DNA from: Pseudomonas sp. 14P_8.1_Bac3
Lineage (GTDB): Bacteria; Pseudomonadota; Gammaproteobacteria; Pseudomonadales; Pseudomonadaceae
Direction of reading: 5' to 3'
DNA length: 30,000 nucleotides
Assembly: GCF_025466085.1 (NCBI RefSeq)
Contig: NZ_JANLOD010000032.1
Coordinates: 166,482-196,481, forward strand
Shown: piece by piece, positions 13,499 through 29,604 of the stretch
Position numbering within the stretch: the first letter of the stretch is position 1
How the letters are laid out: the number at the start of each line of letters is the position of its first letter
Position numbers and translations under genes: made by a program
Notes under the pieces: generated by a model
What the model was told of the DNA's origin: nothing
Seen by the model: the letters and a program-made list of their open reading frames with translations, nothing else
Databases searched by the model: none

Positions 13499-13531
13499 GT
13501 GAGGCGCTTTCGTTTGTCTGAATTGAGACTT

Positions 13532-13562: not shown

Positions 13563-13579
13563 GGCCGGAGCCCTGGCGA

Positions 13580-14860
13580 TCAGGACTTCAGGGGTACTTG
13601 AAGCAAGGGCGCACCGCGATTGGCCATCAATCGCATGATTATCCACGCAGTCAAGTAAGAGCTCGCGCACACAATGAAAATCAGGTTGTAGCCGAGGGTA
13701 AGGTTTTCCAGGGCCTTGTAGTGTTGCAGAACGATGCCGACGATCAATGGAAATATCATCCCGCCCACTGAGCCCGCCGTGCCGCCAATGCCCATGACCG
13801 AGGCGACTTGCGAGCGCGGGAAATTGTCCGCAACGGTGGTGAACAGATTGGCTGACCAGCCCTGGTGGGCTGCGGCTGCCAGGCTCAACAGGCCAACCAT
13901 GACCCACATGTTGTCGATATAGCTGGAGAACCCGATTGGCAAAACCAGTATCGCCATGAACAACATCGCGCTATTGCGGGCTTTTGTTGTCGACCAGCCA
14001 GCACTGATCATTCGCGACGAAAGCCAGCCGCCGCCGACACTGCCGATGGAGGTCGCGCAGTAGACAATCATCAGCGGCAGTCCCAGGTGCTTGAGGTCGA
14101 GGTCGAAGCGACTGGAGAAGTAGGACGGCAACCAGAACAGCATGAACCACCAGATCGGGTCGGTGAGGAACTTGCCGGTGACAAACACCCAGGTGGAGCG
14201 CAGCTTTAGCAGATCGGCCCATTTGACCTTGTCGACGGGTTCAATGTGAGTGTCCTGGTTGATGTAGGCCAGTTCGCTTGGGCTGATCCTTGGATGTGCG
14301 GCAGGGCTCTGGTAAAAAATCTTCCAGAAAACCAGCCAGACAAATCCTGTGAGGCCGGTAATGATAAAGGCGGACTCCCAGCCGTACGTAGCGGCGAGCC
14401 ATGGCACACAGGCGGGTGCCAGAATTGCACCAACACTGGTTCCGGAAGTGAGAATGCCTACGGCCAGGGCCCGTTCATTTTTCGGGAACCACTCAGAAAC
14501 GGCCTTGATGGCCGCCGGGAAATTTCCCGATTCACCCAGCCCCAGCAAGGCGCGCATGTACATGAAACTCAAGGTGGACTGGGCAGCGGCATGGCCGATC
14601 GCGGCGATGCTCCAGACCGTGATGCAAAGGCCGTAGCCGAGCTTGGTGCCCAAGCGGTCGATCAGTTTGCCGAAGATCAGCAGTCCGCCCGCGTAGCAGG
14701 CCTGGAAGACAATGACCAGATAGCTGTAGTCCGTCTCGCTCCAATGAAACTGTTGTTCCAGAAGTGGCTTGAGCAGGCCAAGCACCTGTCGGTCGAGATA
14801 GTTGATCGTGGTGGCGAAAAACAGCAGCGTACAGATTTGCCAGCGGTATTGATGTGACAT
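13580..14860 (-). CDS. MFS transporter, anion:cation symporter family (ExuT/hexuronate-type sugar-acid transporter)
   Basis: The start is placed at MSHQYRWQICTLLFFATTINYLDRQVLG (ATG 14860). The motifs LGESGNFPAAIKAVSEWFPKNERA and the overall layout resemble ExuT/ACS-family permeases. The track's 63-codon upstream extension overlaps the preceding gene. Confidence 0.9.
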   Translation of the reverse strand: MSHQYRWQICTLLFFATTINYLDRQVLGLLKPLLEQQFHWSETDYSYLVIVFQACYAGGLLIFGKLIDRLGTKLGYGLCITVWSIAAIGHAAAQSTLSFMYMRALLGLGESGNFPAAIKAVSEWFPKNERALAVGILTSGTSVGAILAPACVPWLAATYGWESAFIITGLTGFVWLVFWKIFYQSPAAHPRISPSELAYINQDTHIEPVDKVKWADLLKLRSTWVFVTGKFLTDPIWWFMLFWLPSYFSSRFDLDLKHLGLPLMIVYCATSIGSVGGGWLSSRMISAGWSTTKARNSAMLFMAILVLPIGFSSYIDNMWVMVGLLSLAAAAHQGWSANLFTTVADNFPRSQVASVMGIGGTAGSVGGMIFPLIVGIVLQHYKALENLTLGYNLIFIVCASSYLTAWIIMRLMANRGAPLLQVPLKS

Positions 14861-14909
14861 TTGGGCATCTCGCTTCTTATTGTTCTTGTGAACTGTGGGG
14901 GTACGGCAG

Positions 14910-15767
14910 CTAACAACAGCGCTGCAAACGTTCGGCGCACACGCGCAAAACCTCGGCTTCGTCACGTTTCCACCAGTTGTCCCGGGAAAAGATTTCGACT
15001 TCGACAGCGCCCTCATAACCGGCCGTTTCAATCTGCTGGCGAATGCCACGCAGATCGATGACCCCGTCGCCCATCATGCCGCGATCCAGCAGCAAGTCCT
15101 GGGTAGGCACCAGCCAGTCGGACAGGTGCAGGCCCAATATTCGTTGTTGTGCACCGGCGCGCTGTATTTGCTCGTGCAGCCTGGGGTCCCACCAGCAGTG
15201 ATAGACGTCCACGGCAACGCCCAGATGCTGGTAGTTTCCAGGCTCGAGCAATTCGCACAAGTCCAATGCCTGCTCCAGCGTCGACAAGCAGGAACGGTCC
15301 GCTGCATACATCGGGTGCAGCGGTTCCAGAGCCAGCGATACCTGATGCTGTTTGGCGTGATCAAGCAGCAAGGCCAAGCCTTCGGCTACCTGATTGCGTG
15401 CTGCCGGCAGATCCCGGGAGCCTGCGGGCAAGCCACCGACCACCATGACGAAGCATTTTGCTTGCAACTCGGCGGCTTCCTCGATGGCTTTGAGGTTGTC
15501 GGCAATGGCAGCGTCGAAGTCCTGTCGCGTGGCTTGCGGGATGTAGGTCGAGCGACAATAAGCGTTTACCTTTAGTCCGCTGTCGTGTAACTGCCGGCGA
15601 ACCTGGCTGAGCGTGCGGCCTTGGATATCCTTGCGCCACGGGGCGACGTAACCGAATCCCGCGTGGGCGATAAGGTCCAGGGTCTGCTCGATAGGCAGAC
15701 GATGGCCGAGTGTGGCGGTGTTGATCGAACAGAGGTCGAGCCGGTTTTCCAGCGTGCGCAATGTCAT
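14910..15767 (-). CDS. Xylose-isomerase-like TIM-barrel protein (sugar phosphate isomerase/epimerase family)
   Basis: 285 aa with a GGAGAA RBS. It has the alternating pattern typical of the AP-endonuclease-2/IolE-like TIM barrel (…FGYVAPWRKD…, …VMVVGGLP…, …LALEPLHP…, …GVAVDVYHCWWD…, …LHLSDW…, …YEGAVEVEIFS). Confidence 0.85.
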   Translation of the reverse strand: MTLRTLENRLDLCSINTATLGHRLPIEQTLDLIAHAGFGYVAPWRKDIQGRTLSQVRRQLHDSGLKVNAYCRSTYIPQATRQDFDAAIADNLKAIEEAAELQAKCFVMVVGGLPAGSRDLPAARNQVAEGLALLLDHAKQHQVSLALEPLHPMYAADRSCLSTLEQALDLCELLEPGNYQHLGVAVDVYHCWWDPRLHEQIQRAGAQQRILGLHLSDWLVPTQDLLLDRGMMGDGVIDLRGIRQQIETAGYEGAVEVEIFSRDNWWKRDEAEVLRVCAERLQRCC

Positions 15768-15834
15768 TCAATTCTCCACGAATGCAGATGGTCCCATCAC
15801 GGAGCGCGGCACAGGCGGCGCTCCGCGTAACACG

Positions 15835-17010
15835 TTAAGCGTCTACGCCATAGAGACCGAGGAAGGTTTTCATTCTGGCCACGGCCAATGCCGGGTCGCT
15901 GAGTAGCCCGGCCTGGTCGGCGAGACGGAAGATCTCGCAGAAGTAGGGCAGGGGACGCATGGCTTGTTGGCCACCGAGCATGATGAAGTGATCCTGATGG
16001 CCATTGAGGTAGGCCAGGAACACCACACCTGTTTTGTAGTACTGGGTCGGGCTGCTGAAAATCAGGCGTGCCAGCGGCACGGTAGGATCAAGCAGGGCGT
16101 GGTAACGCGCCACATCACCCTCTGCCAAAGCCGCCAGTGCGTGTGAGGCTGCCGGTGCGATGGCATCGAAAATACCCAGTAGGGCGTGGGAGAAACCCTG
16201 TTCATCACCGGCGATCAGTTCCGGATAGTTGAAGTCGTCACCGGTGTACATCTTCACCGATTCCGGCAGTCGTCGGCGCAGGAGGATTTCCTTCTCCTTG
16301 TCGAGCAACGAGATTTTGATTCCGTCGACCTTGGCCGGGTTCTCGTGAATGATTTCAAGACAGGTTTCCAGTGCCTGCTCAAACTTCTGACTGCCCCAGT
16401 ACCCGGTTAGGGCCGGATCGAACATGTCACCCAGCCAGTGCAAGATCACCGGTTGCCGGGCATCCGCCAGTACCTTGCGGTAGACCCGTTTGTAGTCCTG
16501 GGCACCTTTGGCAACACGCGCCAAGGCGCGGCTGGCCATGAGAATGATGCGCCCGTCGAGCTTGTCGATCGCGCTGTGTTGTTCGTCATACGCCTTGAGA
16601 ACATCATCAAGACTACTGGCCTCATTTGCCGCCAATTGATCAGTCCCGCAGCCGGAAAAAATCACTGCATGCTTGATGTCGCGAGTATCTGCGAGCGTGC
16701 GTTTGATCAGCTCCAGTGCGGTCGGCCAATCGAGGCCCATGCCACGCTGGGCCGTGTCCATTGCCTCTGCAATGCCCAGGCCCTGTTGCAGGAGGTAGCG
16801 CCGATACTGAAGGGTTTTGTCCCAGTCGATGGCGGCTGTGCTGCCAGGCTGGTTGGCACTGAACGGGTCGGCGACGACGTGTGCGGCAGACAAGGCGATT
16901 CGGTTATTGGGCAACGGTTTAGCCGGCGGTAAAAGAGGCTCGCCAGTCAACGAGTATTTCTGCAGCGGGCGGGCCGCGTCAGAGGTCAACAAATCAATGG
17001 TTAAAGGCAT
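15835..17010 (-). CDS. DUF993-like protein (DHDPS-like barrel family of unknown function)
   Basis: The motifs SAAHVVADP, AIDWDKTLQYRRYLLQQGLGIAEAMDTAQRGMGLDWPTALELI match my recollection of DUF993 proteins, which are commonly encoded next to TIM-barrel isomerase/epimerase genes. ATG 17010 is preferred over the TTG at 17028. The family call is unverified. Confidence 0.7.
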   Translation of the reverse strand: MPLTIDLLTSDAARPLQKYSLTGEPLLPPAKPLPNNRIALSAAHVVADPFSANQPGSTAAIDWDKTLQYRRYLLQQGLGIAEAMDTAQRGMGLDWPTALELIKRTLADTRDIKHAVIFSGCGTDQLAANEASSLDDVLKAYDEQHSAIDKLDGRIILMASRALARVAKGAQDYKRVYRKVLADARQPVILHWLGDMFDPALTGYWGSQKFEQALETCLEIIHENPAKVDGIKISLLDKEKEILLRRRLPESVKMYTGDDFNYPELIAGDEQGFSHALLGIFDAIAPAASHALAALAEGDVARYHALLDPTVPLARLIFSSPTQYYKTGVVFLAYLNGHQDHFIMLGGQQAMRPLPYFCEIFRLADQAGLLSDPALAVARMKTFLGLYGVDA

Positions 17011-17029
17011 GTGCGTGTCTCTTGGCAAA

Positions 17030-17800
17030 TTAGAACTTTGGAATCAACAGGCCGCCGTCTACTGGCACTGCCTGGCCGACGGTGTAGGGCAAGCCACCAG
17101 TCGCCATGGTGATCACGACACGCGCGACATCTTCGGGCAGTCCCCAGCGTTTAATGGCGGTCAGACCATGTTCAATTTCCGCGTCGTAGCGGGCCTTGGA
17201 CGGTGCCGTCATTTCGGTGGCGATCAGCCCCGGTTGCACCTCGTAGACCCCAATGCCTTCATCGGCCAGACGCACTGCGAACAAGCGCGAGGCCATGGAC
17301 AAGCCGGCCTTGGAAATGCCGTATTCGCCGCGCAAGGTCGACACCGCATGCACGTTGGAGGAGGTGATGGTGATGATGCAGCGATGGCGTTCGCTCGGCG
17401 TTTGCGATTTAAGACGGCGGGCAAACGCCTGGGTCAGAAAGAACGTACCGCGGGTGTTGATCTGATGGCATCGATCAAAGCTCTGCGGGGTGACGTCAAG
17501 CAAGTCGCCCCGTGACAGAACCGAAACTCCGGCATTATTGACCAGGCATGTCAGCGGACCGAGTGCTGCCTGGGCAGCATCAAGCAGCGTTTCATTTCGC
17601 TCGATGGCCGCGATGTCACCCGCCAGTGCAACCGCGTGTGCGCCTGCATCTGTGGCGAGCCGTACGGTTTCCTGAAGCGCCTCATCGACCTGCAAATCCA
17701 CCACGGCCAGATCGAAACCGGCTTGCGCCAGGCCCACCGCAATGGCGCGGCCGATACCTCCGCGTGCGCCGGTAACCAGCGCGGTTGGACGCGCAATCAT
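17030..17800 (-). CDS. Short-chain dehydrogenase/reductase (SDR)
   Basis: TGARGGIGRAIA cofactor motif, NNAG, and the catalytic YGISKAG (YxxxK). The start overlaps the ACAD stop as ATGA. Confidence 0.92.
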   Translation of the reverse strand: MIARPTALVTGARGGIGRAIAVGLAQAGFDLAVVDLQVDEALQETVRLATDAGAHAVALAGDIAAIERNETLLDAAQAALGPLTCLVNNAGVSVLSRGDLLDVTPQSFDRCHQINTRGTFFLTQAFARRLKSQTPSERHRCIITITSSNVHAVSTLRGEYGISKAGLSMASRLFAVRLADEGIGVYEVQPGLIATEMTAPSKARYDAEIEHGLTAIKRWGLPEDVARVVITMATGGLPYTVGQAVPVDGGLLIPKF

Positions 17801-18942
17801 GAGCGTGCCCCGTGGTTAAGCAGCTCACGGGCAATGATCGTGCGCTGGATCTGGTTGGTGCCTTCGTAGATCTGGGTGATCTTCGCGTCGCGGTACAGAC
17901 GCTCGACTTCGAAACCACGGATGAATCCGCTGCCGCCGAACAACTGCACGGCATTGGCGGTGTGCGCTACGGCAATGTCTGCGGCGAAACACTTGGCCAT
18001 CGAGCAGGCAATGGTGGCGTTGTCAGCGCGGTCCAGGCGATCCGCGGCATCGAGCACCAACAAGCGCGCGGCACGAATGTCTTTGGCCATGTCCGCCAGA
18101 ATCCACTGCAACCCCTGGTTGTCAGCGATGGGTTTGCCAAACTGTTTGCGTTGCGGCACGTACTCGAGCGCCGCCTCAAGACCTGCCTGGGCAATGCCCA
18201 CCGCCAGCGACGCGATGCCGATCCGGCCTTTGTCCAGGGCGCTCATCATGATGTGAAAACCACGGCCTTCCTGGCCGAGCAGGGCATCGGGAGCGAGTTC
18301 TACGTTGTCGAAATTCAATCCGCCGACCTGCGATGCGCGCTGTCCCATCTTGTGTTCTTTGGGTCCTTTGGACACGCCGGGCAAATGGCAATCGACGATG
18401 AAAATACTCATCCCGCGTTTGCCTGCCGCCGGGTCAGTGCGCGCCAGCACAAACGCGAGGTCAGCCACCGGTGCGTTATGAATCCACAGTTTCGAACCGT
18501 TGAGCAGCCAGCCATTCTCGGTACGAACAGCAGTGGTGCGAATCCCCGACACATCTGAGCCGGCCTCGGCTTCGGTGATGCAGTACGCCGGGTGCTTTTG
18601 TGCGCTCAGCAAAGAGGGCAGAAAACGCTCACGCTGCTCGGCGCTGCCGTGCACCGATAACAAGGTGCCGATGAGCTCCAGCAGACCGCATTGGTCCGCT
18701 ATCGAGGCATAGCCTCGCGACAACTCTTCCATCACCAACGCATAGGCGCTGGTATCCAGGCCGGCACCACCAAACGCTTCAGGCACGGTGATGCCGAACA
18801 GGCCCAGTTCACCCATTTGACGGTACAGCGCGGCGGGGAAGCTTTCGTCGTGATCGAGCTGTTCAGCCAGCGGGCGGATTGCCTGGTCGGCAAAACGACG
18901 GGCCAGATCACGGATCTGCACGTGGGTTTCAGAAAGCTGCAT
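17797..18942 (-). CDS. Acyl-CoA dehydrogenase
   Basis: 381 aa from ATG 18942, with an AAAGGA RBS. It shows the ACAD N, middle and C domain pattern, and the C-terminal IYEGTNQIQRTIIAREL contains the catalytic Glu position of MCAD/SCAD-type enzymes. Confidence 0.93.
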   Translation of the reverse strand: MQLSETHVQIRDLARRFADQAIRPLAEQLDHDESFPAALYRQMGELGLFGITVPEAFGGAGLDTSAYALVMEELSRGYASIADQCGLLELIGTLLSVHGSAEQRERFLPSLLSAQKHPAYCITEAEAGSDVSGIRTTAVRTENGWLLNGSKLWIHNAPVADLAFVLARTDPAAGKRGMSIFIVDCHLPGVSKGPKEHKMGQRASQVGGLNFDNVELAPDALLGQEGRGFHIMMSALDKGRIGIASLAVGIAQAGLEAALEYVPQRKQFGKPIADNQGLQWILADMAKDIRAARLLVLDAADRLDRADNATIACSMAKCFAADIAVAHTANAVQLFGGSGFIRGFEVERLYRDAKITQIYEGTNQIQRTIIARELLNHGARS

Positions 18943-19030
18943 TGTTTTTTTCCTTTCTGTTGCGCGACGGGAAAAGGCCTTCATCGCTTGGGTTGTGTTC
19001 TGTTTTTAGCTGGATTAAAGTGAATCTATG

Positions 19031-19048
19031 TAACCAACCGGTTATTTA
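19031..19048. promoter_or_regulatory. Operator-like imperfect palindrome, copy 1 (TAACCAACCGGTTATTTA), in the divergent ACAD-operon / CoA-transferase intergenic region
   Basis: It is nearly centred in the 192-bp divergent region, 89 nt from ATG 18942 and 87 nt from ATG 19135. In a 20-nt core it shares 18/20 positions with each of the copies at 21488-21505 and 24914-24931. Confidence 0.6.
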
Positions 19049-19134
19049 TTTAATGCGTCCTTTCTGAAAGCGTCAAGCGCTCTCTGAAAAATCTCGGATT
19101 CGATTGCGGCAAACGTATTGATGAGGAAACAACA

Positions 19135-20646
19135 ATGAAAAGAAGCTGTTCATCAGCGTCAGAAGTGGTTAGCAGGATGGGTGACGGGGCCACGATCGCG
19201 GTCTGCGGTTCAGGGACTCTGCTGGAACCTGACGCGCTGCTTGCGGCGATCGAAGCATCGTTTTTGCGTACAGGTCATCCCTGCGGGCTTACCGTGGTTC
19301 ACGCGCTGGGAATTGGTGATGGGCAAGGCAGTGGTCTGGAGCGGCTCGCACACGAAGGCTTGGTGAAAAGGGTCATTGGCGGGCATTGGAGCTGGTCGGC
19401 CAAGATGCAAGCGCTGGCGCGTAACAATGCGATAGAGGCGTACAGCTTGCCTGCCGGGGTGATCATGAGCCTGATGCGGGAGATCGGTGCGGCGCGTCCG
19501 GGCCTGATTACGCATATCGGTCTGGGCACCTTCGCCGATCCACGGGTTGCGGGTGGCAAATGCAACGCTCGGGCGACCGAATCGATCGTTGAGCGTCTGG
19601 ACATCGATGGCAAAACATACTTGCGTTACAAACCATTCAAGGTCGATGTGGCCATTGTCCGGGGCAGCCTGGCTGATCCGAGCGGGAACATTTCCCTGTG
19701 CCACGAAGCGGCGGATCTGGATGCCTATGCGCTGGCGCTGGCGGCCCATAACAGTGGTGGCAAGGTGTACGCCCAGGTTCGTGAGCTGAGCGACAGTGCT
19801 TTTGTTCCGGCGCGGCTGGTACGGATTCCCGGCGTGCTGGTCGATGAAGTGGTCGTTGTGCCCGAGCAACGTCAATGTGTAGCGGCTGATTATGACCCGG
19901 CCATCAGCGGCGAATGCCTGGCGCAATCGGCAGAGGTCGAAACGTCCATTCCAGACGACATCCGTCGAATCATTGCGCAGCGCGCAGCTGACGAATTCAT
20001 GCCCGGCATGTCCTTGAATTTCGGGTTCGGCATTCCTGGCGGCATTCCTTCATTGCTCGCCGAGCGCGGTTTGCAAGACAGTTATTGGGGCAGTATCGAA
20101 CAGGGCATTCATAACGGCCGGATGATGGGCGGTGCGATGTTTGGCGCTGCGCGTTATCCGCAAGCGATTGTCACCTCCCTTGATCAGTTTGATTTTTACA
20201 GCGGTGGCGGGGTGGACCTGGCTTTTCTCGGCATGGGCGAAATGGACAGCCAGGGCAACGTCAACGTATCCAGCCTCGGTGGCACGCTGGTCGGTCCCGG
20301 TGGTTTTATCGACATTACCCAGGGCGCTCGCAAAGTGGTGTTTTGCGGAGCCTTTGAGGCCAAGGGATTGGAGGTGGCGAAGGTCGGTGGCGAGTTGCAG
20401 CTCAATCGGCTCGGCGAGGTTCCCAAGCTGGTTGAAAAAGTCCGTCATATCACCTTCAGCGGGCCGCAAGCCGTACTGGCCGGACAGGAAGTGCTCTATG
20501 TCACGGAGCGCGCAGTGTTCAGGCTTATACCCGAAGGCATTGAGTTGATCGAGGTTGCACAAGGCGTCGATATCCAGCGTGACGTGCTTGATCGCATGGC
20601 GTTCACGCCCATCGTTCGCGATGTGAAAGTGGCAGGGCTGGTGTGA
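19135..20646 (+). CDS. Family I CoA-transferase, fused alpha/beta type (YdiF-like acyl-CoA:acetate/3-ketoacid CoA-transferase)
   Basis: 503 aa with a GAGGAA RBS. The N-terminal GDGATIAVCGSG... and the overall pattern resemble the fused YdiF-type enzymes. A candidate catalytic Glu lies in GSIEQGIHNG. Confidence 0.88.
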   Translation: MKRSCSSASEVVSRMGDGATIAVCGSGTLLEPDALLAAIEASFLRTGHPCGLTVVHALGIGDGQGSGLERLAHEGLVKRVIGGHWSWSAKMQALARNNAIEAYSLPAGVIMSLMREIGAARPGLITHIGLGTFADPRVAGGKCNARATESIVERLDIDGKTYLRYKPFKVDVAIVRGSLADPSGNISLCHEAADLDAYALALAAHNSGGKVYAQVRELSDSAFVPARLVRIPGVLVDEVVVVPEQRQCVAADYDPAISGECLAQSAEVETSIPDDIRRIIAQRAADEFMPGMSLNFGFGIPGGIPSLLAERGLQDSYWGSIEQGIHNGRMMGGAMFGAARYPQAIVTSLDQFDFYSGGGVDLAFLGMGEMDSQGNVNVSSLGGTLVGPGGFIDITQGARKVVFCGAFEAKGLEVAKVGGELQLNRLGEVPKLVEKVRHITFSGPQAVLAGQEVLYVTERAVFRLIPEGIELIEVAQGVDIQRDVLDRMAFTPIVRDVKVAGLV

Positions 20647-20651
20647 TGCTT

Positions 20652-20685
20652 GCCCCTTTTGGCTTGCGTGCGTGCGAAAAGGGGC
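20652..20685. terminator. Hairpin between the convergent CoA-transferase and tetR genes; a possible bidirectional terminator
   Basis: GCCCCTTTT (20652-20660) and AAAAGGGGC (20677-20685) form a 9-bp perfect stem with a 16-nt loop. Confidence 0.5.
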
Positions 20686-20702
20686 GATTGGAGCTGGCTG
20701 TC

Positions 20703-21359
20703 TCAGTCGGGGCGCAGCATGCCGAGGATCGTCTGAATGTTGAAGTCGATACGGGCTTGCAGCGCTTCCGGGGACATCAGGTCGAAGCCGTAGATGATCT
20801 CGCCGGTAAAGCGGTTGTTGAGGTAGTAGTAATTGATCGCGGCAATCGTGATGTTCAGCTGGATTGGATCAATACCTTCGCGGAATACGCCCTGTGCAAC
20901 GCCTCGGGCAAGGATCTCGGCCACCATCGAAACCATCGGTGCATGCATGTCATGCATCTTTTCGCGAGAGCGTTTCAAGTGCGCGGCTTTGTGCAGGTTC
21001 TCGCTGTTGACCAGGGTCAGGAAGTGAGGGTTTTTCAGGTAGTACTTCCAAGTGAAGCTCACCAGTTTGCTGATTGCTTCGACCGGTTCCAGTTCTTCCA
21101 GTTTGAGCTTGCGTTCGGCTTGGCGAATGTCTTGATAGGCCAATTCAAGCACGGCTTCGAACAAGCCTTCTTTATTGCCGTAGTACTCATAAATCATTCG
21201 TTTATTGGATTTTGCTCTCAGCGCGATGCTGTCAATGCGGGCACCGCCAAGCCCCAACTTGGCAAATTCGATTTTTGCCGCATTGAGAATCCTCAGTCGT
21301 GTGGCATCGGAATCGCGAATAGGACGCGCCGACGTGTCGTCGGTAGGTTTCGTGGGCAT
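20703..21359 (-). CDS. TetR/AcrR-family transcriptional regulator
   Basis: 218 aa with the N-terminal HTH RILNAAKIEFAKLGLGGARIDSIALRAKSNKRMIYEYYGNKEGLFEAVL. Confidence 0.92.
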   Translation of the reverse strand: MPTKPTDDTSARPIRDSDATRLRILNAAKIEFAKLGLGGARIDSIALRAKSNKRMIYEYYGNKEGLFEAVLELAYQDIRQAERKLKLEELEPVEAISKLVSFTWKYYLKNPHFLTLVNSENLHKAAHLKRSREKMHDMHAPMVSMVAEILARGVAQGVFREGIDPIQLNITIAAINYYYLNNRFTGEIIYGFDLMSPEALQARIDFNIQTILGMLRPD

Positions 21360-21480
21360 TTAAAACGCTCTCCAGAGCATAGGTGCTGTTACTCATAACG
21401 CTGATATGGCTTGCCACCGCGGCCGGGCGATGAGCTTAGCCGTAGGGTATGCAACTGACAAATAAAGCTTAGCCTGAGGC

Positions 21481-21509
21481 TTGCATGTAAACAACCGGTT
21501 AGTTATATA
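21481..21509 (+). promoter_or_regulatory. Sigma70-type promoter for the ALDH-GMC operon, with the operator filling the spacer
   Basis: TTGCAT (21481-21486), a 17-nt spacer, then TATATA (21504-21509). It lies 79 nt upstream of GTG 21588. Confidence 0.6.
21488..21505. promoter_or_regulatory. Operator-like imperfect palindrome, copy 2 (TAAACAACCGGTTAGTTA)
   Basis: It lies in the tetR / ALDH divergent region and overlaps the -35/-10 spacer. The flanking 26-mer ATGTAAACAACCGGTTAGTTATATAT matches copy 1 (19028-19053) at 22/26 positions. Confidence 0.6.
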
Positions 21510-21587
21510 TCTTTGGCGGTGGGTTCATTTTCCCGGTTTTTTGAATCTTCAACTGCCTGAATCGAACGCTGTACAGAGGACGTTTTT

Positions 21588-23099
21588 GTGAATGACAACA
21601 ATGGCAACACCCGGATCCATCAACTGCCAGTTCAGCCGCGCCACTTTGACATGTTCATCGACGGGCAATGGACCCAGGGCTCGGCAATCAAGCAGGTAAC
21701 GCGACTGAGTCCGGCGCACAATGTTCCGGTGAGTCAGTATCCATCGGGGGGCGTGGCCGATGTCGATCGGGCGGTAGGAGCAGCTCGTCGGGCGTTCGAT
21801 CACGGGCGTTGGGCCAAATCCGGGGCAGACTTTCGCGCCACGATACTGCTGAAAACAGCGGCATTGATTCGCGAGAACAGCGAAGAGCTGGCGCTTTGCG
21901 AGACGCTCGAAACGGGTAAGCCGATCAATCAGTCGAGGGGTGAAGTGCTCGGTGCTGCGGGCATCTGGGAATATGCCGCAGGACAGGCCAGGGCGCTGCA
22001 CGGTGACTCGTTCAACAATCTTGGCGAGAACCTGCTTGGGCTGGTGACGCGTGAGCCGGTGGGTGTGGTGGGTTTGATCACACCGTGGAATTTTCCATTC
22101 TTCATCCTCGCAGAGCGGTTGCCCTTCATTCTCGCCTCCGGTTGCACTGTGGTGGTCAAACCCAGCGAACTGACTTCCGGTACCACGTTGATGTTGGCCG
22201 GACTGTTGAAGCAGGCCGGTTTGCCCGATGGTGTCGTGAATGTGCTGACCGGGCCGGGCTCGGTGGTTGGTCAAGCCATTTCCGGGCATGCGGATATCGA
22301 TATGGTGTCGTTCACCGGCTCTACCGAAGTCGGTCGCCTGACCATGAACGCGGCGGCTGGCAATATGAAGAAAATTGGCCTGGAACTGGGAGGCAAGAAT
22401 CCGCAGATCGTCTTCGCCGACGCTGACCTGGACGCTGCGGCCGATGCCATTGTCTTTGGCATTTGCTTCAACGCCGGTCAATGTTGTGTCAGTGGCAGCC
22501 GTCTGGTGGTCCATCGCTCCGTAGAAAAACAGTTGACCGAAAAAGTACTCGCGCTGATTGGAAAAGTCCGTATCGGTGACCCGCTTTTGGAGTCGACGCA
22601 GGTCGGTTCCATTACCGAGCAGCGTCATCTGGAAAGAGTCCTGGGTTACATCGAACAAGGTCGCAAGGAAGGGGCTGTGCTGGTTCATGGCGGAGCCAGA
22701 ATCGATTCCGTGCAAGGGCTTTATTTGCAGCCGGCAGTTTTCAATCAGGTGACTGCAGACATGGTGATTGCCCGTGAAGAGATCTTTGGCCCAGTTTTGA
22801 CCATCACCGCGTTTGACGATTTCGAAGAAGCCATGCGGCTGGCCAACGACACGCCGTTCGGCCTGGCTGCGAGCATCTGGAGTCGCGATCTGGAAACCTC
22901 ATTGCAGGCGATGCGGGAAATCAAGGCGGGTCGCGTGTGGGTCAATACCACCATTGCCGGCGGCCCGGAGCTGCCTTCTGGCGGCTTCAAACAGTCGGGT
23001 ATCGGGCGGGAAACCGGCCGTTACGGGGTGGAGGAATACACTGAGCTTAAATCCGTGCATGTCCAGTTGGGCGAGCGCTCCCGCTGGGTTCAGGCCTGA
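21588..23099 (+). CDS. NAD(P)-dependent aldehyde dehydrogenase
   Basis: AGAGGA lies 7 nt before GTG 21588. It has VTPWNFP-type (ITPWNFPFF), ELGGKNP and FNAGQCCVSGSR (catalytic Cys) motifs. Confidence 0.93.
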   Translation: MNDNNGNTRIHQLPVQPRHFDMFIDGQWTQGSAIKQVTRLSPAHNVPVSQYPSGGVADVDRAVGAARRAFDHGRWAKSGADFRATILLKTAALIRENSEELALCETLETGKPINQSRGEVLGAAGIWEYAAGQARALHGDSFNNLGENLLGLVTREPVGVVGLITPWNFPFFILAERLPFILASGCTVVVKPSELTSGTTLMLAGLLKQAGLPDGVVNVLTGPGSVVGQAISGHADIDMVSFTGSTEVGRLTMNAAAGNMKKIGLELGGKNPQIVFADADLDAAADAIVFGICFNAGQCCVSGSRLVVHRSVEKQLTEKVLALIGKVRIGDPLLESTQVGSITEQRHLERVLGYIEQGRKEGAVLVHGGARIDSVQGLYLQPAVFNQVTADMVIAREEIFGPVLTITAFDDFEEAMRLANDTPFGLAASIWSRDLETSLQAMREIKAGRVWVNTTIAGGPELPSGGFKQSGIGRETGRYGVEEYTELKSVHVQLGERSRWVQA

Positions 23100-23136
23100 T
23101 CCGCGGCCGTACAAAAACAAGAGAGGAAACATCACC

Positions 23137-24789
23137 ATGTACGATTTCGTCATTATCGGCGGTGGTTCGGCAGGTTGCGTGCTGGCGGCGCGATTGAGCG
23201 AGTCGATCGACGTTCGAGTACTTTTGCTCGAAGCGGGGCCCGCTGACACCAACCCTTACATTCATATGCCGGTCGGCTTTTTCAAGATGACGGGTGGGCC
23301 TCTGACCTGGGGCTATAAAGCCGTGGCGCAGGGTGACATCCAGGATCGCTCGATTCTCTTTCCCCAAGGCCGGGTTCTGGGCGGGGGTGGCTCGATCAAC
23401 GCAATGGTCTATACCCGTGGCAATGCCAAAGACTATGACGATTGGGAGCAGGAGGAGGGCTGCCGTGGCTGGTCTTATCGCGATGTGCTGCCTTATTTTC
23501 GCAAGGCCGAGGACAACGAGCGGTTCTCCAATGAGTATCATGGCACCGAAGGCCCCTTGGGTGTCTCCGATCTGATCACGGTCAACGAGCTGACGAAGGC
23601 ATTCGTGCGGTCTGCCCAGGAGGCGGGTATTCCGTACAACCCGGACTTCAATGGTGCCAGGCAAGAAGGCTGTGGCACCTATCAAGTCACGCAACGCGGC
23701 GGACGCCGTTGCAGCGCGGCCCAAGGTTATTTGAGCAAGGTTCGCAATCGACCCAATCTGACCATTCAGACGGAATGCCTGGTGACGCGGATTCGTATCG
23801 AGGACGGCCAGGCCACGGGGGTGGAGTATGTTCAGGGTAGCGGTTCGCGAGAGGTGAAATTCGTCGCGGCCGAGCGCGAGGTCGTGGTGGCGGCGGGGGC
23901 TATTGGCTCCCCCAAGATTCTAATGCTCTCTGGTGTCGGTCCGGCCGAAGAACTGGCCGGTCTGGGGATCGCGGTCAAGCAGGACTTGCCTGGTGTAGGG
24001 CAGAACCTGCAAGACCATTTTGACATCGATATCGTCTATGAGCTCAAGGGTTCGCAGAGCCTGGACAAGTACGCCAAGCCGCACATGATGTTAATGGCAG
24101 GTCTGGAATATAAGCTCTTCAACAAAGGCCCCGTGACTTCGAACATCGCTGAGGCTGGCGCTTTCTGGTACGGCGACTCACGCTCCAGCACGCCTGATCT
24201 GCAGTTTCATTTTTTGCCGGGGGCAGGTGTCGAGGCGGGTATTCCTCCCGTTCCTTCGGGGGCTGGTTGCACGCTCAACTCGTACTTCCTGCGCCCTCGC
24301 AGTCGTGGCAGCGTGAGGTTGCGTAGCGCTGACCCCTTGCAACCGCCGTCAATTGATCCCAACTACGTCAGCGACCCGTATGACCTGCATGTCTCAGTAG
24401 AAGGTATCAAGTTGAGCCGGGAAATCATGGCCCAGCATTCCTTGAGTCGTTACCTCAAATCCGAGCATTTTCCTGGTACCAGTGTGCGCACCCAGGCGGA
24501 TTACGAAGATTACGCACGACGTTGCGGTCGAACCGGCTATCACCCGGTCGGGACATGCAAAATGGGGGTAGACGAATTCGCTGTGGTCGACCCGCAGCTG
24601 CGTGTGCGCGGCGTGCAGCGGCTACGCGTCATCGACTCTTCAGTGATGCCTCGGCTGATCAGCGCCAACACCAATGCGCCTTCGATCATGATTGCCGAGA
24701 AGGGGGCCGACCTTCTGCTGGGGCGCACCCTGACGCCTTCTGAAGTGCAGACCAAAAGCGGTCTCCAATCCCAGGATCAAACCGTATAA
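23137..24789 (+). CDS. GMC-family FAD oxidoreductase (choline/alcohol dehydrogenase-like)
   Basis: A GAGAGGA RBS precedes ATG 23137. The protein starts MYDFVIIGGGSAGCVLAARLSE (GxGxxG) and has GGGGSINAMVYTRG (GMC signature) and the C-terminal HPVGTCKMG active-site His region. The track's start at 22813 is an out-of-gene extension overlapping the ALDH. Confidence 0.93.
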   Translation: MYDFVIIGGGSAGCVLAARLSESIDVRVLLLEAGPADTNPYIHMPVGFFKMTGGPLTWGYKAVAQGDIQDRSILFPQGRVLGGGGSINAMVYTRGNAKDYDDWEQEEGCRGWSYRDVLPYFRKAEDNERFSNEYHGTEGPLGVSDLITVNELTKAFVRSAQEAGIPYNPDFNGARQEGCGTYQVTQRGGRRCSAAQGYLSKVRNRPNLTIQTECLVTRIRIEDGQATGVEYVQGSGSREVKFVAAEREVVVAAGAIGSPKILMLSGVGPAEELAGLGIAVKQDLPGVGQNLQDHFDIDIVYELKGSQSLDKYAKPHMMLMAGLEYKLFNKGPVTSNIAEAGAFWYGDSRSSTPDLQFHFLPGAGVEAGIPPVPSGAGCTLNSYFLRPRSRGSVRLRSADPLQPPSIDPNYVSDPYDLHVSVEGIKLSREIMAQHSLSRYLKSEHFPGTSVRTQADYEDYARRCGRTGYHPVGTCKMGVDEFAVVDPQLRVRGVQRLRVIDSSVMPRLISANTNAPSIMIAEKGADLLLGRTLTPSEVQTKSGLQSQDQTV

Positions 24790-24800
24790 CGCTTGGGTTT

Positions 24801-24831
24801 CTGCGCATCGATAGCTGTCCTTGATGCGCAG
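24801..24831 (+). terminator. Hairpin after the GMC stop; terminator-like but with no U-tract
   Basis: CTGCGCATC (24801-24809) and GATGCGCAG (24823-24831) form a 9-bp perfect stem with a 13-nt loop. Confidence 0.4.
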
Positions 24832-24913
24832 GAGCTTCATCGCTATCGACCATTCGAGAATTTTTTAACCTCCTCCAATCGCTAACGATTGCATCCTCGC
24901 TGCATTAGATTTA

Positions 24914-24931
24914 TAAATAACTAGTTGGTTA
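24914..24931. promoter_or_regulatory. Operator-like palindrome, copy 3 (TAAATAACTAGTTGGTTA, inverted orientation), upstream of the ABC transporter operon
   Basis: The reverse complement TAGTAACCAACTAGTTATTTATAAAT matches copy 1 at 18/20 core positions. The central CCGG is replaced by the equally palindromic CTAG. It is embedded in an AT-rich, promoter-like stretch 53 nt upstream of ATG 24984. Confidence 0.55.
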
Positions 24932-24983
24932 CTAAAAATACAATAAAGCGCTTATCACCCGGTGAGGCGCGTCCGGAGGTCAC

Positions 24984-26090
24984 ATGAATAACAACAATGA
25001 AAATGATCCAGTTCGGCTCCTCGAAATGAGCCGCCGCAAGCTGTTGTTGGGAGCCGCCAGCCTGGCCGGTGCCGGTGCAGTGGCGGGTTTGTTTCCCACG
25101 ATGCTGTGGGCACAGACAACGCTGACTTTCTCCAACTCCTTCCGTTCGCTGACCAATCCCTACCACGCGATTTTCAATCGTGGCGGTGAAGCCTATGCCG
25201 CCAGCCAGAAGCTGCCGTACTCGCCGCTTGTGACCGAAGGCAACAGCCAGAAGGGCATTGCCGACATTCGCGCCTTGATCGCCAAGACTGACGGCAACCT
25301 GATCCTCAACGTCGAACCGAACGATTCCGCCGACGCCCGGGTCATCATCGAGCAATGCGTCAAGGCTGGCGTATACGTCACAACCATCTGGAACAAGCCG
25401 GATGACATGCATCCCTGGGACTACAGTCCGTATTGGGTGGCACACATGGCCGAGGATGGCCAGGCCGTGGGTGAGGCGGTGGCCATTGAACTGTTCGAAG
25501 CAATGGGTGGAAAGGGCGGTATCGTCGGCTTGGGCGGCATCTTCAGTAACGTTGCGTCGATCGGACGCCGCAGCGGCCTTGACGCTGCCTTGAAAAAATA
25601 TCCAGACATCAAGCTACTGGATTTCCAGGCGGCCGACTGGAGTGCCAACAAAGCGTTCCCGATCGTGCAGTCCTGGCTAACGCGTTTCGGCAGCGAGATC
25701 AAAGGCATCTGGTGCGCCAATGACGACATGGGCATGGGCGCACTGGAAGCGTTACGCGGCGAAGGGTTGGCGGGGACGATTCCGGTGGTTGGTATCGATG
25801 CTATCGAACAGGCCGTGGATGCCATTCGTACCGGCGAATATGTCGCCACCTCCAACCTGGACCCGTACTGGCTCGGCAGCATGGGATTGGCACTGGCGCA
25901 TGCGGCCAAAACCGGCCAGTTCGATCCGGCTAAAGAGCCTCACGAGCATCGCGAGTTCTATGTACGGCCACAGTTGATCACGAAGAAGAACGTCGAAGCC
26001 TTTTATGCGACCAACTTCAAGGGGACGCCGACGCTGGATGTCAGCGATTTCTGGGGTCGAATTGCCGGGCCCATTCGCTACAACTCGTAA
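24984..26090 (+). CDS. Periplasmic sugar-type ABC substrate-binding protein (ribose/PBP1 family) with a twin-arginine signal peptide
   Basis: GGAGG RBS. The N-terminus is ...EMSRRKLLLGAASLAGAGAVAGLFPTMLWAQ (the SRRxLL Tat motif). The rest has a PBP1-like pattern. Confidence 0.9.
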   Translation: MNNNNENDPVRLLEMSRRKLLLGAASLAGAGAVAGLFPTMLWAQTTLTFSNSFRSLTNPYHAIFNRGGEAYAASQKLPYSPLVTEGNSQKGIADIRALIAKTDGNLILNVEPNDSADARVIIEQCVKAGVYVTTIWNKPDDMHPWDYSPYWVAHMAEDGQAVGEAVAIELFEAMGGKGGIVGLGGIFSNVASIGRRSGLDAALKKYPDIKLLDFQAADWSANKAFPIVQSWLTRFGSEIKGIWCANDDMGMGALEALRGEGLAGTIPVVGIDAIEQAVDAIRTGEYVATSNLDPYWLGSMGLALAHAAKTGQFDPAKEPHEHREFYVRPQLITKKNVEAFYATNFKGTPTLDVSDFWGRIAGPIRYNS

Positions 26091-26148: not shown

Positions 26149-27132
26149 ATGAACGCTTTTTCAATGCCTGTTTCCGGAGTTATCGTCATGGTCCGCCTGC
26201 GACGGTTTTCATCGCTTATTGTCCTGCTGCTCATCGGTCTGCTCATCGGTTCGGTCAATCCCAGTTTTTTTGACCCGATGAACCTGGCTCGAATCGCCAC
26301 CACATCGTCAATTCCGCTACTGATGGCGTTGGGGGGACTGTTCGTTATTCAGATGGGAAGTATCGACCTTTCCGTTGAAGGGGTTGTTGCGGTCTCAGCG
26401 GTATCGCTCGCTTTGCTGATCGGCAACTCCATCAATAGCCACGCCATTGGGTTTTGGGCGCTGCCGATAGCGATCCTGGTTGGCGCACTGACCGGTCTTA
26501 TCAACGGGCTGTTGCAAGTCAAAATGCGCATCCCGTCGTTCATGGCCACGCTGGGCGTCGGTTTCATCGGCATTGGCCTGGCCACCGCTTTGCTTGAAGG
26601 CAACACCGTGCGGGTGCTCGACATGAATACCCGGGCGATTGCCTTGACTCGCCTGATGGGGTTGCCGGTATCGGTCTGGATTGTGGTGTTGGCGCTGGGT
26701 GTCGCTCACTTCATTTCCCGGCACACGACGCTGGGGCGGCACGCGCTGGCCATTGGTGGCGGGGAGGATCTGGCGCGACTCAATGGCATCAACGTCAACC
26801 GTACGCGGATCACCATTTTCGCTTTGGCCGGGGCCTTTTACGGGTTGGCGGCGATCCTCGCCGTGGCTCAGTTCGGGCAAGGGCATGCATTGATTGCCCA
26901 AGGCCAACTGTTTACCGCGATCACTGCGATTGTCGTTGGCGGCGCCTCATTGGCAGGTGGCAATGGCAGCCCGTTGGGAACGTTGCTGGGGGTGTTGATC
27001 GTCGTGGTGGTCAGCAATGGCATGGTGCTGATGGGGGTCGCCCCCTACGTCCAGCAAGGTGTGCAGGGCGTGCTGATTATTGCCGCTGTAGCCATCGCCC
27101 TCGATCGTGCGAAAGCACGTGTCGTCAAGTGA
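26149..27132 (+). CDS. ABC transporter permease (ribose/BPD-2 type), first of two
   Basis: It is multi-pass hydrophobic, with the characteristic ...LSVEGVVAVSAV..., ...IPSFMATLG... and ...GGASLAGGNGSPLGTLLGVL... motifs. The alternative start ATG 26188 has a better RBS (GGAG 8 nt upstream). Confidence 0.9.
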   Translation: MNAFSMPVSGVIVMVRLRRFSSLIVLLLIGLLIGSVNPSFFDPMNLARIATTSSIPLLMALGGLFVIQMGSIDLSVEGVVAVSAVSLALLIGNSINSHAIGFWALPIAILVGALTGLINGLLQVKMRIPSFMATLGVGFIGIGLATALLEGNTVRVLDMNTRAIALTRLMGLPVSVWIVVLALGVAHFISRHTTLGRHALAIGGGEDLARLNGINVNRTRITIFALAGAFYGLAAILAVAQFGQGHALIAQGQLFTAITAIVVGGASLAGGNGSPLGTLLGVLIVVVVSNGMVLMGVAPYVQQGVQGVLIIAAVAIALDRAKARVVK

Positions 27133-27141: not shown

Positions 27142-28644
27142 ATGCTCACGCTCAATAATGTCAGTAAACGGTTCAACGGCGTCACGGTGCTGAAGAACAT
27201 TTCGCTTGAAGTGCGCAAACACGAAGTTGTCGGGCTGATCGGCGAAAACGGTGCAGGCAAATCGACGTTGATGAAGATTCTCACCGGTGTCTACCAACCG
27301 GATGAAGGTCATTTGGAACTCGATGGTTCGCCAATCCTGCTCGATGGTCCGCGTGGCGCCACCGCCAACGGCATCGCCATGGTTTACCAGGAGCAATCGA
27401 TCCTGCTCAACCTGTCGGTCGCTGAAAACCTGTTCATGGGGCGCGAGGACGAGTTCTCGCGCTTCGGTTGGCTGAACTGGAAAAAACTGCACAAGGCTGC
27501 TCGCCTGCAATTGGCCAAAGTCAATCTGGATATCGACCCTGGCATGTTGTGCAGTGAGTTGAGCTTCGGTCAGCGGCAAATGATTGAACTGGCCAAGGCC
27601 CTGGCACTGGAAGAGCGTACTGACGGTCATTTGGTGATCCTTCTGGATGAGCCGACCTCGGCACTCGAACAAAAGGAAATTGACACATTGTTCCGCTTGG
27701 TGCGGCAACTCAAGTCCCGTGCTTCGTTCATCTTCGTCTCCCATCGACTGGACGAGTTACTCGACCTCAGTGACCGGGTTTATGTGATGAAGGACGGGGA
27801 AGTGGTGGCGCAAATGGACGCCGCCGAAGCCTCGAAAGACCGCTTGCACACCTTGATGGTAGGTCGTTCGCTGCATGCCGAGTTTTACCGTGAGTCACTC
27901 CAGCAGCCGTGCTTGTCCGAGGTCGTGATGTCGGCGCGCGAGTTGGCGCTCGACGGCCACTTTTCCAGCCTGGATTTCGATTTGCATCGTGGAGAAGTGC
28001 TTGGCATCGCCGGGGTCATTGGCTCGGGCCGTGAAGAGTTGTGTCGGGTGCTGGCCGGTTTGATGCCTAAAAGTCGCGGTGAAATCCAGGTGCAAGGCCG
28101 TCGTTTGGACACTGGAAACCCGCGGGCGGCGATTCGTGCGGGTATCGGTTACATCCCCCGTGAACGCAAGGTTGAAGGCATCGTTTCAATGCTCAGCGTG
28201 GCGCAGAACATGACCCTGGCGCGCATCGGTCAAGTGACCTCGCTTGGGCTGCTCGATGAGCGCAAAGAGCGTTCGATCGCCGAAGACTGGATCAAGCGCC
28301 TGAGCATCAAAACCCCGGGACCGGATGCTTTGCTGCTCAACCTCAGTGGTGGCAACCAGCAAAAAGTGGTGTTGGCCAAGTGGCGCAATGCGGGCTCCAC
28401 AATTCTGATTCTGGATCACCCGACTCGCGGGCTGGATGTGGGTGCCAAGGAAGACGTTTACCAACTGATCCGCGAGATCACCCGCCAAGGCGTCTCGGTG
28501 ATTCTGACCGCCGATACCCTGGAGGAGATGATTGGGCTGAGTCACCGGATTCTGGTCATGCGAGATGGTGAAGTTGCTCAATCCTTCGACTGCCTGCCCG
28601 GCGCCAAGCCGCAGCAAGTAGACCTGATCAAGTATATGGTTTGA
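27142..28644 (+). CDS. Sugar ABC transporter ATP-binding protein with tandem ABC domains
   Basis: GAGGAGG RBS. Domain 1 has Walker A GENGAGKST, signature LSFGQRQ and Walker B VILLDEPT. Domain 2 has the degenerate Walker A GVIGSGREEL, signature LSGGNQQK and ILILDHPTRGLD. Confidence 0.95.
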   Translation: MLTLNNVSKRFNGVTVLKNISLEVRKHEVVGLIGENGAGKSTLMKILTGVYQPDEGHLELDGSPILLDGPRGATANGIAMVYQEQSILLNLSVAENLFMGREDEFSRFGWLNWKKLHKAARLQLAKVNLDIDPGMLCSELSFGQRQMIELAKALALEERTDGHLVILLDEPTSALEQKEIDTLFRLVRQLKSRASFIFVSHRLDELLDLSDRVYVMKDGEVVAQMDAAEASKDRLHTLMVGRSLHAEFYRESLQQPCLSEVVMSARELALDGHFSSLDFDLHRGEVLGIAGVIGSGREELCRVLAGLMPKSRGEIQVQGRRLDTGNPRAAIRAGIGYIPRERKVEGIVSMLSVAQNMTLARIGQVTSLGLLDERKERSIAEDWIKRLSIKTPGPDALLLNLSGGNQQKVVLAKWRNAGSTILILDHPTRGLDVGAKEDVYQLIREITRQGVSVILTADTLEEMIGLSHRILVMRDGEVAQSFDCLPGAKPQQVDLIKYMV

Positions 28645-28656: not shown

Positions 28657-29604
28657 ATGCCCATTTCCCTTAGCGGATTTCGCAGTCAGGCGCCTTTGCT
28701 GGCCTTGATTGTTCTGGTTGCACTGATCGGCGGATATGACCCTGGGTTCATTCACCCCGGTGCTGTTCTTGGTCTGCTTGCCGACACCTCGACACTGTTT
28801 GTGATGGCGACCGGCATTACTTTTGTATTGCTCATCGGCGGTATCGATCTGTCTTCCCAGGCCGTGGCTTCCATGGCCAGTGTGATTGTCGCGCTGTTGT
28901 TGCCGGCTTACGGATTCTGGGCTTTCCCGATCGGGCTCGGCTTGGGAATCGCGACCGGCGCACTCAGTGGCTTGCTGCATACGTGGCTGCGACTGCCCTC
29001 GTTCATTGTCACCCTGGCGGTCGGCGGCGTCGTTACCAGTGTCACCATGCTCGCGTCGAACAATCGGTCGATCAATATCGACGGCGCAGAGCGCGATGCC
29101 TGGTTTGGCTGGGTCACTGGCCATACCGCCGGAATTCCCAATGAAGTCTGCGTGGCCTTTGTTGTGCTCATGCTGTGCATTTTCCTGCATCGCAAGACGC
29201 CTTTCGGTCGGTTCGGCAACGCCATTGGGGCCGGTGAGCCCGCTGCCTGGGCGTCGGGTATCAACGTCAATCGCATCAAGATCATGACCTTCGCGATCTC
29301 GGCCGGTCTGGCGGCGTTGTCTGGAATCATCATGGCCGGAAGGCTGTCCAGCGGTTCACCCACTTTGGCCAATGAGTTCCTGTTGCCGGCAATCGCGGCG
29401 GTACTGGTGGGGGGCACGGCATTGACCGGTGGCGTGGGTGGCGTCTGGCGAACGCTGATTGGTGCGCTGCTGGTTTCCGTGGTGCGGATCGGCATGACGT
29501 TCGTGGGTGTCAGCGTGTTTGCCCAACAGATCGTTTTCGGCGTGATCCTGATCATCGCAGTGGCCTTCACCATCGATCGTTCGAAGCTTCCGGTCGTCAA
29601 GTAA
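28657..29604 (+). CDS. ABC transporter permease (ribose/BPD-2 type), second of two
   Basis: 315 aa, with the same family motifs as the first permease (IDLSSQAVASMASV, LPSFIVTLAVGG, GGTALTGGVGGVWRTLIGAL). Confidence 0.9.
   Translation: MPISLSGFRSQAPLLALIVLVALIGGYDPGFIHPGAVLGLLADTSTLFVMATGITFVLLIGGIDLSSQAVASMASVIVALLLPAYGFWAFPIGLGLGIATGALSGLLHTWLRLPSFIVTLAVGGVVTSVTMLASNNRSINIDGAERDAWFGWVTGHTAGIPNEVCVAFVVLMLCIFLHRKTPFGRFGNAIGAGEPAAWASGINVNRIKIMTFAISAGLAALSGIIMAGRLSSGSPTLANEFLLPAIAAVLVGGTALTGGVGGVWRTLIGALLVSVVRIGMTFVGVSVFAQQIVFGVILIIAVAFTIDRSKLPVVK

Follow-up and report, generated by a model that had tools for sequence, protein, structure and literature searches.

A repeated palindrome predicted to be the operator of a PF17938-type TetR regulator in a catabolic gene cluster of Pseudomonas

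A stretch of 30,000 nucleotides from Pseudomonas sp. 14P_8.1_Bac3 (assembly GCF_025466085.1, contig NZ_JANLOD010000032.1, positions 166,482 to 196,481), here called the window, carries a cluster of catabolic genes in which one palindromic sequence occurs three times, each time in a promoter region. The three copies, O1, O2 and O3, are in all probability operators of the TetR-family protein that is encoded in the cluster itself (20703-21359; PF00440 and PF17938), as predicted from the sequence. We infer that this TetR would bind them, and would do so as a repressor rather than as an activator. Most likely it is a ligand-released, autoregulated repressor of up to five transcription units, in a so far uncharacterised local regulon of the conventional TetR type. 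A preliminary description of the same sequence had proposed one repressor, most simply this TetR, for at least four transcription units. The choice of regulator is supported by synteny, by palindromes upstream of tetR in several classes of bacteria, by the co-occurrence of the motif with PF17938 proteins, and by the nearly identical motif found by chromatin immunoprecipitation sequencing (ChIP-seq) for a PF17938 TetR of Burkholderia pseudomallei (PMC11358695). The number of units is reasonable, with three operators serving up to five.

Predicted operator sites in the window

The 20-mer consensus GTAAmCAACyrGTTAkTTAT has three matches in the window, at 19030-19049 (+), 21487-21506 (+) and 24913-24932 (-), and the three copies of the preliminary description were all found where it had placed them. 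O1 (GTAACCAACCGGTTATTTAT; 19030-19049) lies in the middle of the divergent region between the acyl-CoA dehydrogenase (ACAD) operon and the CoA-transferase gene; its core is separated by 86 nt from the start of ACAD on one side and by 85 nt from the CoA-transferase ATG (19135) on the other. O2 (GTAAACAACCGGTTAGTTAT; 21487-21506) lies in the divergent region between tetR and the operon of an aldehyde dehydrogenase (ALDH) and a glucose-methanol-choline (GMC) flavoprotein dehydrogenase, its core being 127 nt away from the tetR start and 81 nt from the ALDH GTG, upstream of both. O3 (reverse strand GTAACCAACTAGTTATTTAT; 24913-24932) is located between the GMC and substrate-binding protein genes, upstream of the ABC-transporter/etf operon, in which etfB starts at 29633 after the transporter genes; 51 nt separate the end of its core from the ATG of the ABC substrate-binding protein gene. 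These positions agree with the earlier placement of copies 1 and 3. All three sites are intergenic and in promoter regions.

The degenerate 20-mer GTAAMCAACYRGTTAKTTAT, searched in the 30 kb with up to three mismatches, returned these three sites and nothing else, and gave no match in 100 dinucleotide-preserving shuffles of the window. The bare dyad TAANNAACNNGTTNNTTA with up to two mismatches again found only O1-O3 (0.26 matches expected), and a window scan with the looser pattern GTAACYANNTRGTTAC added one weak match, located inside a coding region. The mismatches of copy 1 are at positions 5 and 16 against copy 2 and at 10 and 11 against copy 3, in agreement with the 18/20 identity claimed earlier for each pair.

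The idealised operator is an 18-bp palindrome, TAAC-yAAC-yr-GTTr-kTTA. The dyad frame proposed from the three copies, TAA-N2-AAC / GTT-N2-TTA, was obtained again by an unbiased Gibbs search and from perfect palindromes elsewhere (see below). The centres CCGG and CTAG are present as described, but the idea that the centre strictly keeps the symmetry did not hold: Pseudomonas orthologues have CCGG, CTAG, CTGG and CCAG, of which the last two are asymmetric. The centre of the site is just y-r, not a strictly symmetric pair. The site is built of four phased tetramers (TAAC, yAAC / GTTr, kTTA), which allows a second dyad, TAAC-N6-GTTA, to be read through it; two offset dimers may be the reason for the four phased TAAC tetramers. 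An alternative axis, GTAAC-N6-GTTAC, which is seen before paralogues in alpha- and betaproteobacterial loci, was disfavoured by the Gibbs search and by the perfect palindromes elsewhere.

Conservation of the sites and of the gene cluster

Species-representative genomes were scanned with a TetR alignment, which gave 79 loci, 10 from Pseudomonas and 69 from other bacteria. The full gene set is kept in 10/10 Pseudomonas loci (TetR identity 75-95%), including a syntenic ACAD-SDR-DUF993-TIM-MFS operon (ACAD, short-chain dehydrogenase/reductase, DUF993 protein, TIM-barrel protein and major facilitator superfamily transporter); the DUF993-TIM pair also occurs in 10-11 other loci. The three operators, O1 among them, stand at the same syntenic places in all 10 while the flanks drift. 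Phylogenetic footprinting, proposed as a check in the preliminary description, bore this out. Expressed as mean column conservation in MAFFT alignments of 11 Pseudomonas sequences, the 20-nt cores reach 0.94-0.97 versus 0.66-0.75 elsewhere in the spacers (0.97 versus 0.75 in the ACAD/CoA-transferase spacer with O1, 0.94 versus 0.68 in the tetR/ALDH spacer with O2, and 0.97 versus 0.66 in the GMC/substrate-binding protein spacer with O3). Two further blocks of the ACAD/CoA-transferase region, GGGTTGTGTTCT (18990-19001) and CGTCAAGCGCTC (19071-19082), are largely conserved in the Pseudomonas orthologues.

A fourth copy of the operator was observed in Phytopseudomonas daroniae (locus L010, 2593-6319). 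It lies at 6302-6319, in front of a tripartite carboxylate-transporter operon (TctB-TctA-TctC) that has been inserted between the genes of the substrate-binding protein and GMC. This suggests that uptake extends to an acid form of the substrate and is subject to the same control.

The TetR is conserved to a striking degree: orthologues that are 60-68% identical occur in Rhodobacterales, Rhizobiales, Marinobacterium and betaproteobacterial metagenome-assembled genomes, and thus in alpha-, beta- and gammaproteobacteria. In the 69 loci outside Pseudomonas tetR is linked to a transporter (57 loci), a GMC gene (51) and an ALDH gene (42), and a subset also has DUF993/TIM, ACAD, SDR and CoA-transferase genes. 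The alphaproteobacterial loci additionally contain a Zn-dependent alcohol dehydrogenase gene. A strict match to the motif is present within 330 nt upstream of tetR in 54/79 loci, versus 1.8% of control windows. The unbiased Gibbs sampler, applied to the regions upstream of tetR, picked out O2 in the window and found the motif rAAGTAACy|rGTTAGTkm in about 64/70 non-redundant loci; it aligns the Pseudomonas O2 in the TAA-N2-AAC / GTT-N2-TTA frame. Across the loci there are 283 motif matches versus 18 after shuffling, and full sites, GTAACTAACTrGTTAT, stand before GMC, ALDH, CoA-transferase and substrate-binding protein genes in Marinobacterium, Pleomorphomonas and other loci.

Palindromes of a different spacing, GTAACCAnnTGGTTAC (TAAC-N6-GTTA, not N2), were seen upstream of ACAD, ALDH and GMC paralogues in alpha- and betaproteobacterial loci, at 11195-11210 in L011, 12519-12534 in L077, 4043-4058 and 18732-18747 in L034, and at other places. 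In L034 one of them is immediately next to a LacI-type box, TGAAACGTTTCA, and to a LacI gene.

The TetR protein and its clade

The window TetR (218 aa; 20703-21359, reverse strand) is 100% identical to a multispecies Pseudomonas protein. It has the two-domain architecture of an N-terminal TetR helix-turn-helix (HTH) domain (TetR_N, PF00440; 35.6 bits) and the C-terminal domain TetR_C_29 (PF17938; 136.6 bits). The HTH motif AK(S/A)NKRMIY is invariant across the TetR orthologues, and the recognition helix of the window protein, SNKRMIYEYY, fits the clade signature xNK(R/A)(M/L)(I/L)Y.YF. The palindrome is located in the promoter region of tetR itself and at the adjacent target promoters.

Metagenome contigs were scanned for GTAACYAACYRGTTAKTTA, and at least 120 contigs matched, 72 with a G+C content of at least 0.5 and 48 of low G+C content; the counts that follow are among the matches listed. 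A TetR-like open reading frame (ORF) lies beside the motif in 45/72 high-GC contigs, and nine more are the cluster itself. The other 18 high-GC contigs mostly have a perfect palindrome and lack a TetR within 400 nt of it; several of these sites are near contig ends, and the sites may be target operators. A TetR-like ORF lies beside the motif in only 1/48 low-GC contigs, and the other low-GC matches look like chance in AT-rich DNA. The perfect dyad TAACTAAC-yr-GTTAGTTA is found in 31/46 TetR-adjacent sites, compared with 25% expected from the four combinations that the scan pattern allowed. The metagenome TetRs adjacent to the motif are 25-58% identical to the window TetR and have its unusual recognition helix, xNK(R/A)(M/L)(I/L)Y.YF, in common with it; of eight that were tested, six exceeded the PF17938 cut-off well.

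A further check in Terriglobales was not seeded with the motif, but started from homologues of one motif-adjacent TetR in three genomic contexts (L200, L201 and L202). A perfect TAACTAACyrGTTAGTTA is present upstream of 3/3 Terriglobales PF17938 tetR genes and ends 3-4 nt before the annotated start (L200, 2979-3003; L201, 2981-3003; L202, 2981-3003); two of the three sites would escape the scan pattern GTAACYAACYRGTTAKTTA. Such a short distance to the ATG implies leaderless mRNAs or mis-called starts. The operons at these loci consist of tetR, an HlyD-like adaptor gene and an ABC-2 exporter gene.

A tentative extension of these results, which we consider possible but somewhat improbable, is that PF17938 TetRs from Proteobacteria to Acidobacteria share TAACTAAC-yr-GTTAGTTA as a DNA code of the whole clade, in which the specificity has been frozen while ligands and targets have diverged. 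If so, operators and regulons could be predicted for thousands of uncharacterised TetRs, and target prediction would become simple for many orphan regulators; the question would then arise how paralogues in one genome avoid cross-talk.

Predicted promoters and mode of regulation

The ALDH-GMC operon has a predicted promoter, TTGCAT-N17-TATATA (21481-21509, +), with hexamers at 21481-21486 and 21504-21509 and O2 in its 17-nt spacer, just as the preliminary description had read it from the sequence. Its -35 hexamer is TTGCAT or TTGTAT in 8/11 aligned sequences. A possible tetR promoter, TTGTTT-N17-TAAGCT (21466-21494, -), would have its -35 within O2; the AGCTTA block of this putative promoter is conserved in 11/11 sequences. 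For the ABC/etf operon a promoter is predicted at 24889-24917 (+), with TTGCAT (24889-24894), N17 and TATAAA (24912-24917). O3 overlaps the -10 and the expected start site of this predicted promoter, of which GATTGCA(T/A) and TATAAA are conserved in 10/10 aligned sequences. Overlap of operator and promoter is typical of repressors. A hairpin in the 5'-UTR before the substrate-binding protein gene was no better than in shuffled sequences.

In the proposed mechanism TetR dimers would sit on the operators when no inducer is present. Occupied O3 would cover the -10/+1 region of the ABC-etf promoter. Occupied O2 would extend across the spacer of the ALDH-GMC promoter, and probably over the -35 of the promoter that drives tetR in the opposite direction; occupied O1 would be in a central position, with the ACAD operon on one side and the CoA-transferase gene on the other. 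With the operators placed in this way, a single protein would silence as many as five units, among them that of its own gene. A substrate or intermediate of the pathway would then bind to the C-terminal domain and release the repressor.

Several observations weigh against this assignment. A consensus promoter scan called none of the three promoters, and promoters around O1 were not recognisable by consensus. The predicted ALDH-GMC and ABC/etf promoters were missed because their -10 hexamers end in A, and the promoter assignments thus rest on reading of the sequence and on its conservation. Some orthologue loci, for instance L011, L046, L051 and L077, have no clear site upstream of tetR. The motif is common to many PF17938 regulators, so that another paralogue in the same genome could bind the three sites too, or in place of the local TetR. 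The one relative studied by experiment, BP1026B_II1561, is reported to have raised its targets mildly on overexpression (log2FC 0.5-1) and not to have repressed them (PMC11358695).

The last two observations are the starting points of two rival explanations. That the sites are bound mainly by another PF17938 TetR paralogue elsewhere in the genome, or by several with cross-talk, is unlikely. Such a sharing of sites would fit the use of the same 18-bp operator by TetRs of the low identities given above, with quite different target operons, and the presence of two paralogues in one locus in some genomes (L012, L048). It is at odds with the motif being located upstream of the orthologous tetR and beside the linked genes in nearly every locus, and with the lack of other TetR genes in the window; local autoregulated control is also the usual situation for TetR proteins. 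Slightly less likely again is an activating or dual role of the local TetR, bound at these sites, for which the genes raised beside the ChIP peaks upon overexpression of BP1026B_II1561 would speak (PMC11358695). The distance of O1 from the start codons on either side, about 85 nt upstream of each, could suit activation, whereas O3 on a conserved -10 and expected start and O2 in the spacer between -35 and -10 are in positions that block RNA polymerase. Among TetR-family proteins that have been characterised, the majority are repressors released by a ligand.

It is very improbable that the elements are a dispersed intergenic repeat of the REP/MITE type, or AT-rich promoter sequence kept for RNA polymerase. 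The 3' end of the motif does overlap -10-like hexamers, and chance matches occur in low-GC metagenome contigs. A common intergenic repeat, which would have contradicted the preliminary description, should be scattered at unrelated places, but there are just three copies in 30 kb, each at a syntenic promoter region, and 79 x 20 kb of related loci hold copies only at cluster promoters. The enrichment of perfect palindromes among the TetR-adjacent sites and the ChIP-seq result for a relative (PMC11358695) also speak against a repeat or mere promoter sequence. The IclR-family protein at 12779-13498, which had been named as an alternative binder, is the least probable candidate of all. It is encoded by the only other regulator gene near the cluster, but an orthologue is adjacent in only 2/10 of the Pseudomonas loci that keep the three sites and in 0/69 other loci, and the motif tracks TetR genes across phyla. 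An IclR-controlled regulon was rejected, the regulator not being co-conserved with the sites and no site being present near its gene (13499-13579). Control by the cluster-encoded TetR is the preferred explanation.

Gene content and proposed pathway

The ACAD operon (13580-18943, all genes on the reverse strand) was annotated by Pfam and NCBIfam. It begins downstream of O1 with the ACAD gene (17797-18943) and continues with the SDR gene (17030-17800), the DUF993 gene (15835-17028; its product matches PDB 4dnh and, weakly, dihydrodipicolinate synthase, DHDPS), a xylose-isomerase-like TIM-barrel gene (14910-15767) and an MFS transporter gene (13580 to about 14900). The ACAD start is placed at 18943 and not at 18984, because a ribosome-binding site and ATG are conserved there in all orthologues. 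The longest MFS ORF (13580-15049) overlaps the TIM-barrel ORF by 140 nt, and the real MFS start is probably further downstream. On the other side of O1, and transcribed away from it, is the gene of a fused family-I CoA-transferase (YdiF/FadX-like; 19135-20646, +), followed by tetR. Downstream of O2 are the ALDH (21588-23099, +) and GMC (23140-24789, +) genes. The operon downstream of O3 encodes the substrate-binding protein of a CUT2-type ABC transporter (24984-26090, +; PDB 2rjo match at 1.9e-127), a permease (26149-27132, +), the ATPase (27142-28644, +), a second permease (28657-29604, +) and EtfB (from 29633, +), whose gene runs past the end of the window at 30000.

The iclR gene (12779-13498, -) is followed by an HbpS-like (haem-degrading-like) gene (12302-12772, -) and a second MFS gene (11094-12305, -). 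This group, confined to the closest relatives (L001 and L002), looks like a separate small unit. The stretch from 5350 to 11000 contains a tyrosine integrase gene (5350-6546) and then five ORFs without a Pfam match, as well as a SnoaL-like gene (9008-9493, -) and an SRPBCC gene (10549-10977, -); no tRNA was found. An island junction, with putA/MCP on one side and the catabolic cluster on the other, is a possible reading of this stretch. A plasmid origin was rejected, as there was no megablast match in PLSDB.

The regulated genes look like one catabolic system. The ABC transporter would import a sugar- or polyol-like compound, which GMC and then ALDH would oxidise from alcohol to aldehyde to acid. 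CoA-transferase, ACAD and EtfAB would provide CoA activation and dehydrogenation linked to the electron-transfer flavoprotein (ETF), and the SDR, DUF993 and TIM-barrel enzymes would act in later steps. The combination of a sugar-type ABC transporter, MFS, the TctBAC transporter of L010, GMC and ALDH, CoA-transferase and ACAD/ETF suggests a route in which a polyol- or cyclitol-like alcohol would be oxidised to its acid and then degraded as a CoA thioester. An undescribed route for a sugar- or cyclitol-like compound, involving DUF993 as a DHDPS-like enzyme, belongs to the same tentative extension as the clade-wide code. The PDB relatives 2rjo (substrate-binding protein) and 4dnh (DUF993) are unnamed structures, and literature on DUF993, 2RJO, 4DNH, TAACTAGTTA together with TetR, and quinate together with TetR contained nothing usable on the identity of the substrate.

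The predicted regulon would join five units, namely transporter plus ETF, ALDH-GMC, tetR, CoA-transferase and ACAD-SDR-DUF993-TIM-MFS. It provides the best clue so far to the function of DUF993 and of a widely conserved, uncharacterised gene set, and it offers an operator/repressor pair ready for inducer screening and biosensor work.

Comparison with known systems

RutR of Escherichia coli is the best NCBIfam match of the window TetR and a weak PDB match, and its recognition helix is related. The window protein is not RutR (47 bits versus a cut-off of 368); RutR has a YcdC-like C-terminal domain, another operator and a pyrimidine utilisation regulon. Built around the core ACCA-nn-TGGT, the 16-bp palindromic operator of RutR is similar to the GTAACCAnnTGGTTAC variants of some loci. 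KstR, with the operator core AAC-N2-GTT, and PsrA, with the core AAAC-N-GTTT, control ACAD and beta-oxidation-like genes. The match of the window TetR to PsrA (E = 1e-4) is far below the cut-off, and the flanking operator positions differ from those of both KstR and PsrA. In QacR two dimers occupy one long operator. By analogy, the 18-bp site with its four tetramers phased by 4 bp and two overlapping dyads could take two dimers, although an offset of 4 bp may be too short for this.

The arrangement of a TetR-family gene beside an ALDH gene and then a GMC 'choline-dehydrogenase-like' gene is shared with BetI and betIBA, and the BetI regulon has one operator in a divergent promoter, as in the tetR/ALDH region of the window. 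The window TetR has TetR_C_29, however, whereas BetI has TetR_C_6. The bet regulon was rejected as an identification, with all three equivalog cut-offs missed (BetI, 26.5 versus 201.3 bits; BetB, 461 versus 668.6; BetA, 516 versus 732). Unlike bet, the cluster also contains a sugar-type ABC transporter, CoA-transferase, ACAD, ETF and DUF993.

A close parallel is BP1026B_II1561 of B. pseudomallei, compared here by domains and motif, which has the same two-domain Pfam architecture (PF00440 and PF17938) as the window TetR. ChIP-seq of this protein gave two strong peaks and the MEME motif TATnnGAACTAACTAGnT (PMC11358695; Front Microbiol 2024). Its targets are genes for shikimate dehydrogenase, dehydroquinase and an MFS permease, plus a porin, and are not adjacent to the regulator gene (PMC11358695). 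These other targets and the mild activation reported on overexpression set it apart from the role proposed for the window TetR. The motif TATnnGAACTAACTAGnT holds the same half-site, AA-ny-AAC-y|r-G, and 11/12 defined positions match GTAACTAACTAGTT-type sites. The ChIP-seq result is evidence that a member of the PF17938 clade binds DNA with this motif in vivo (PMC11358695), and an operator that travels with the clade would put the B. pseudomallei motif in a general context.

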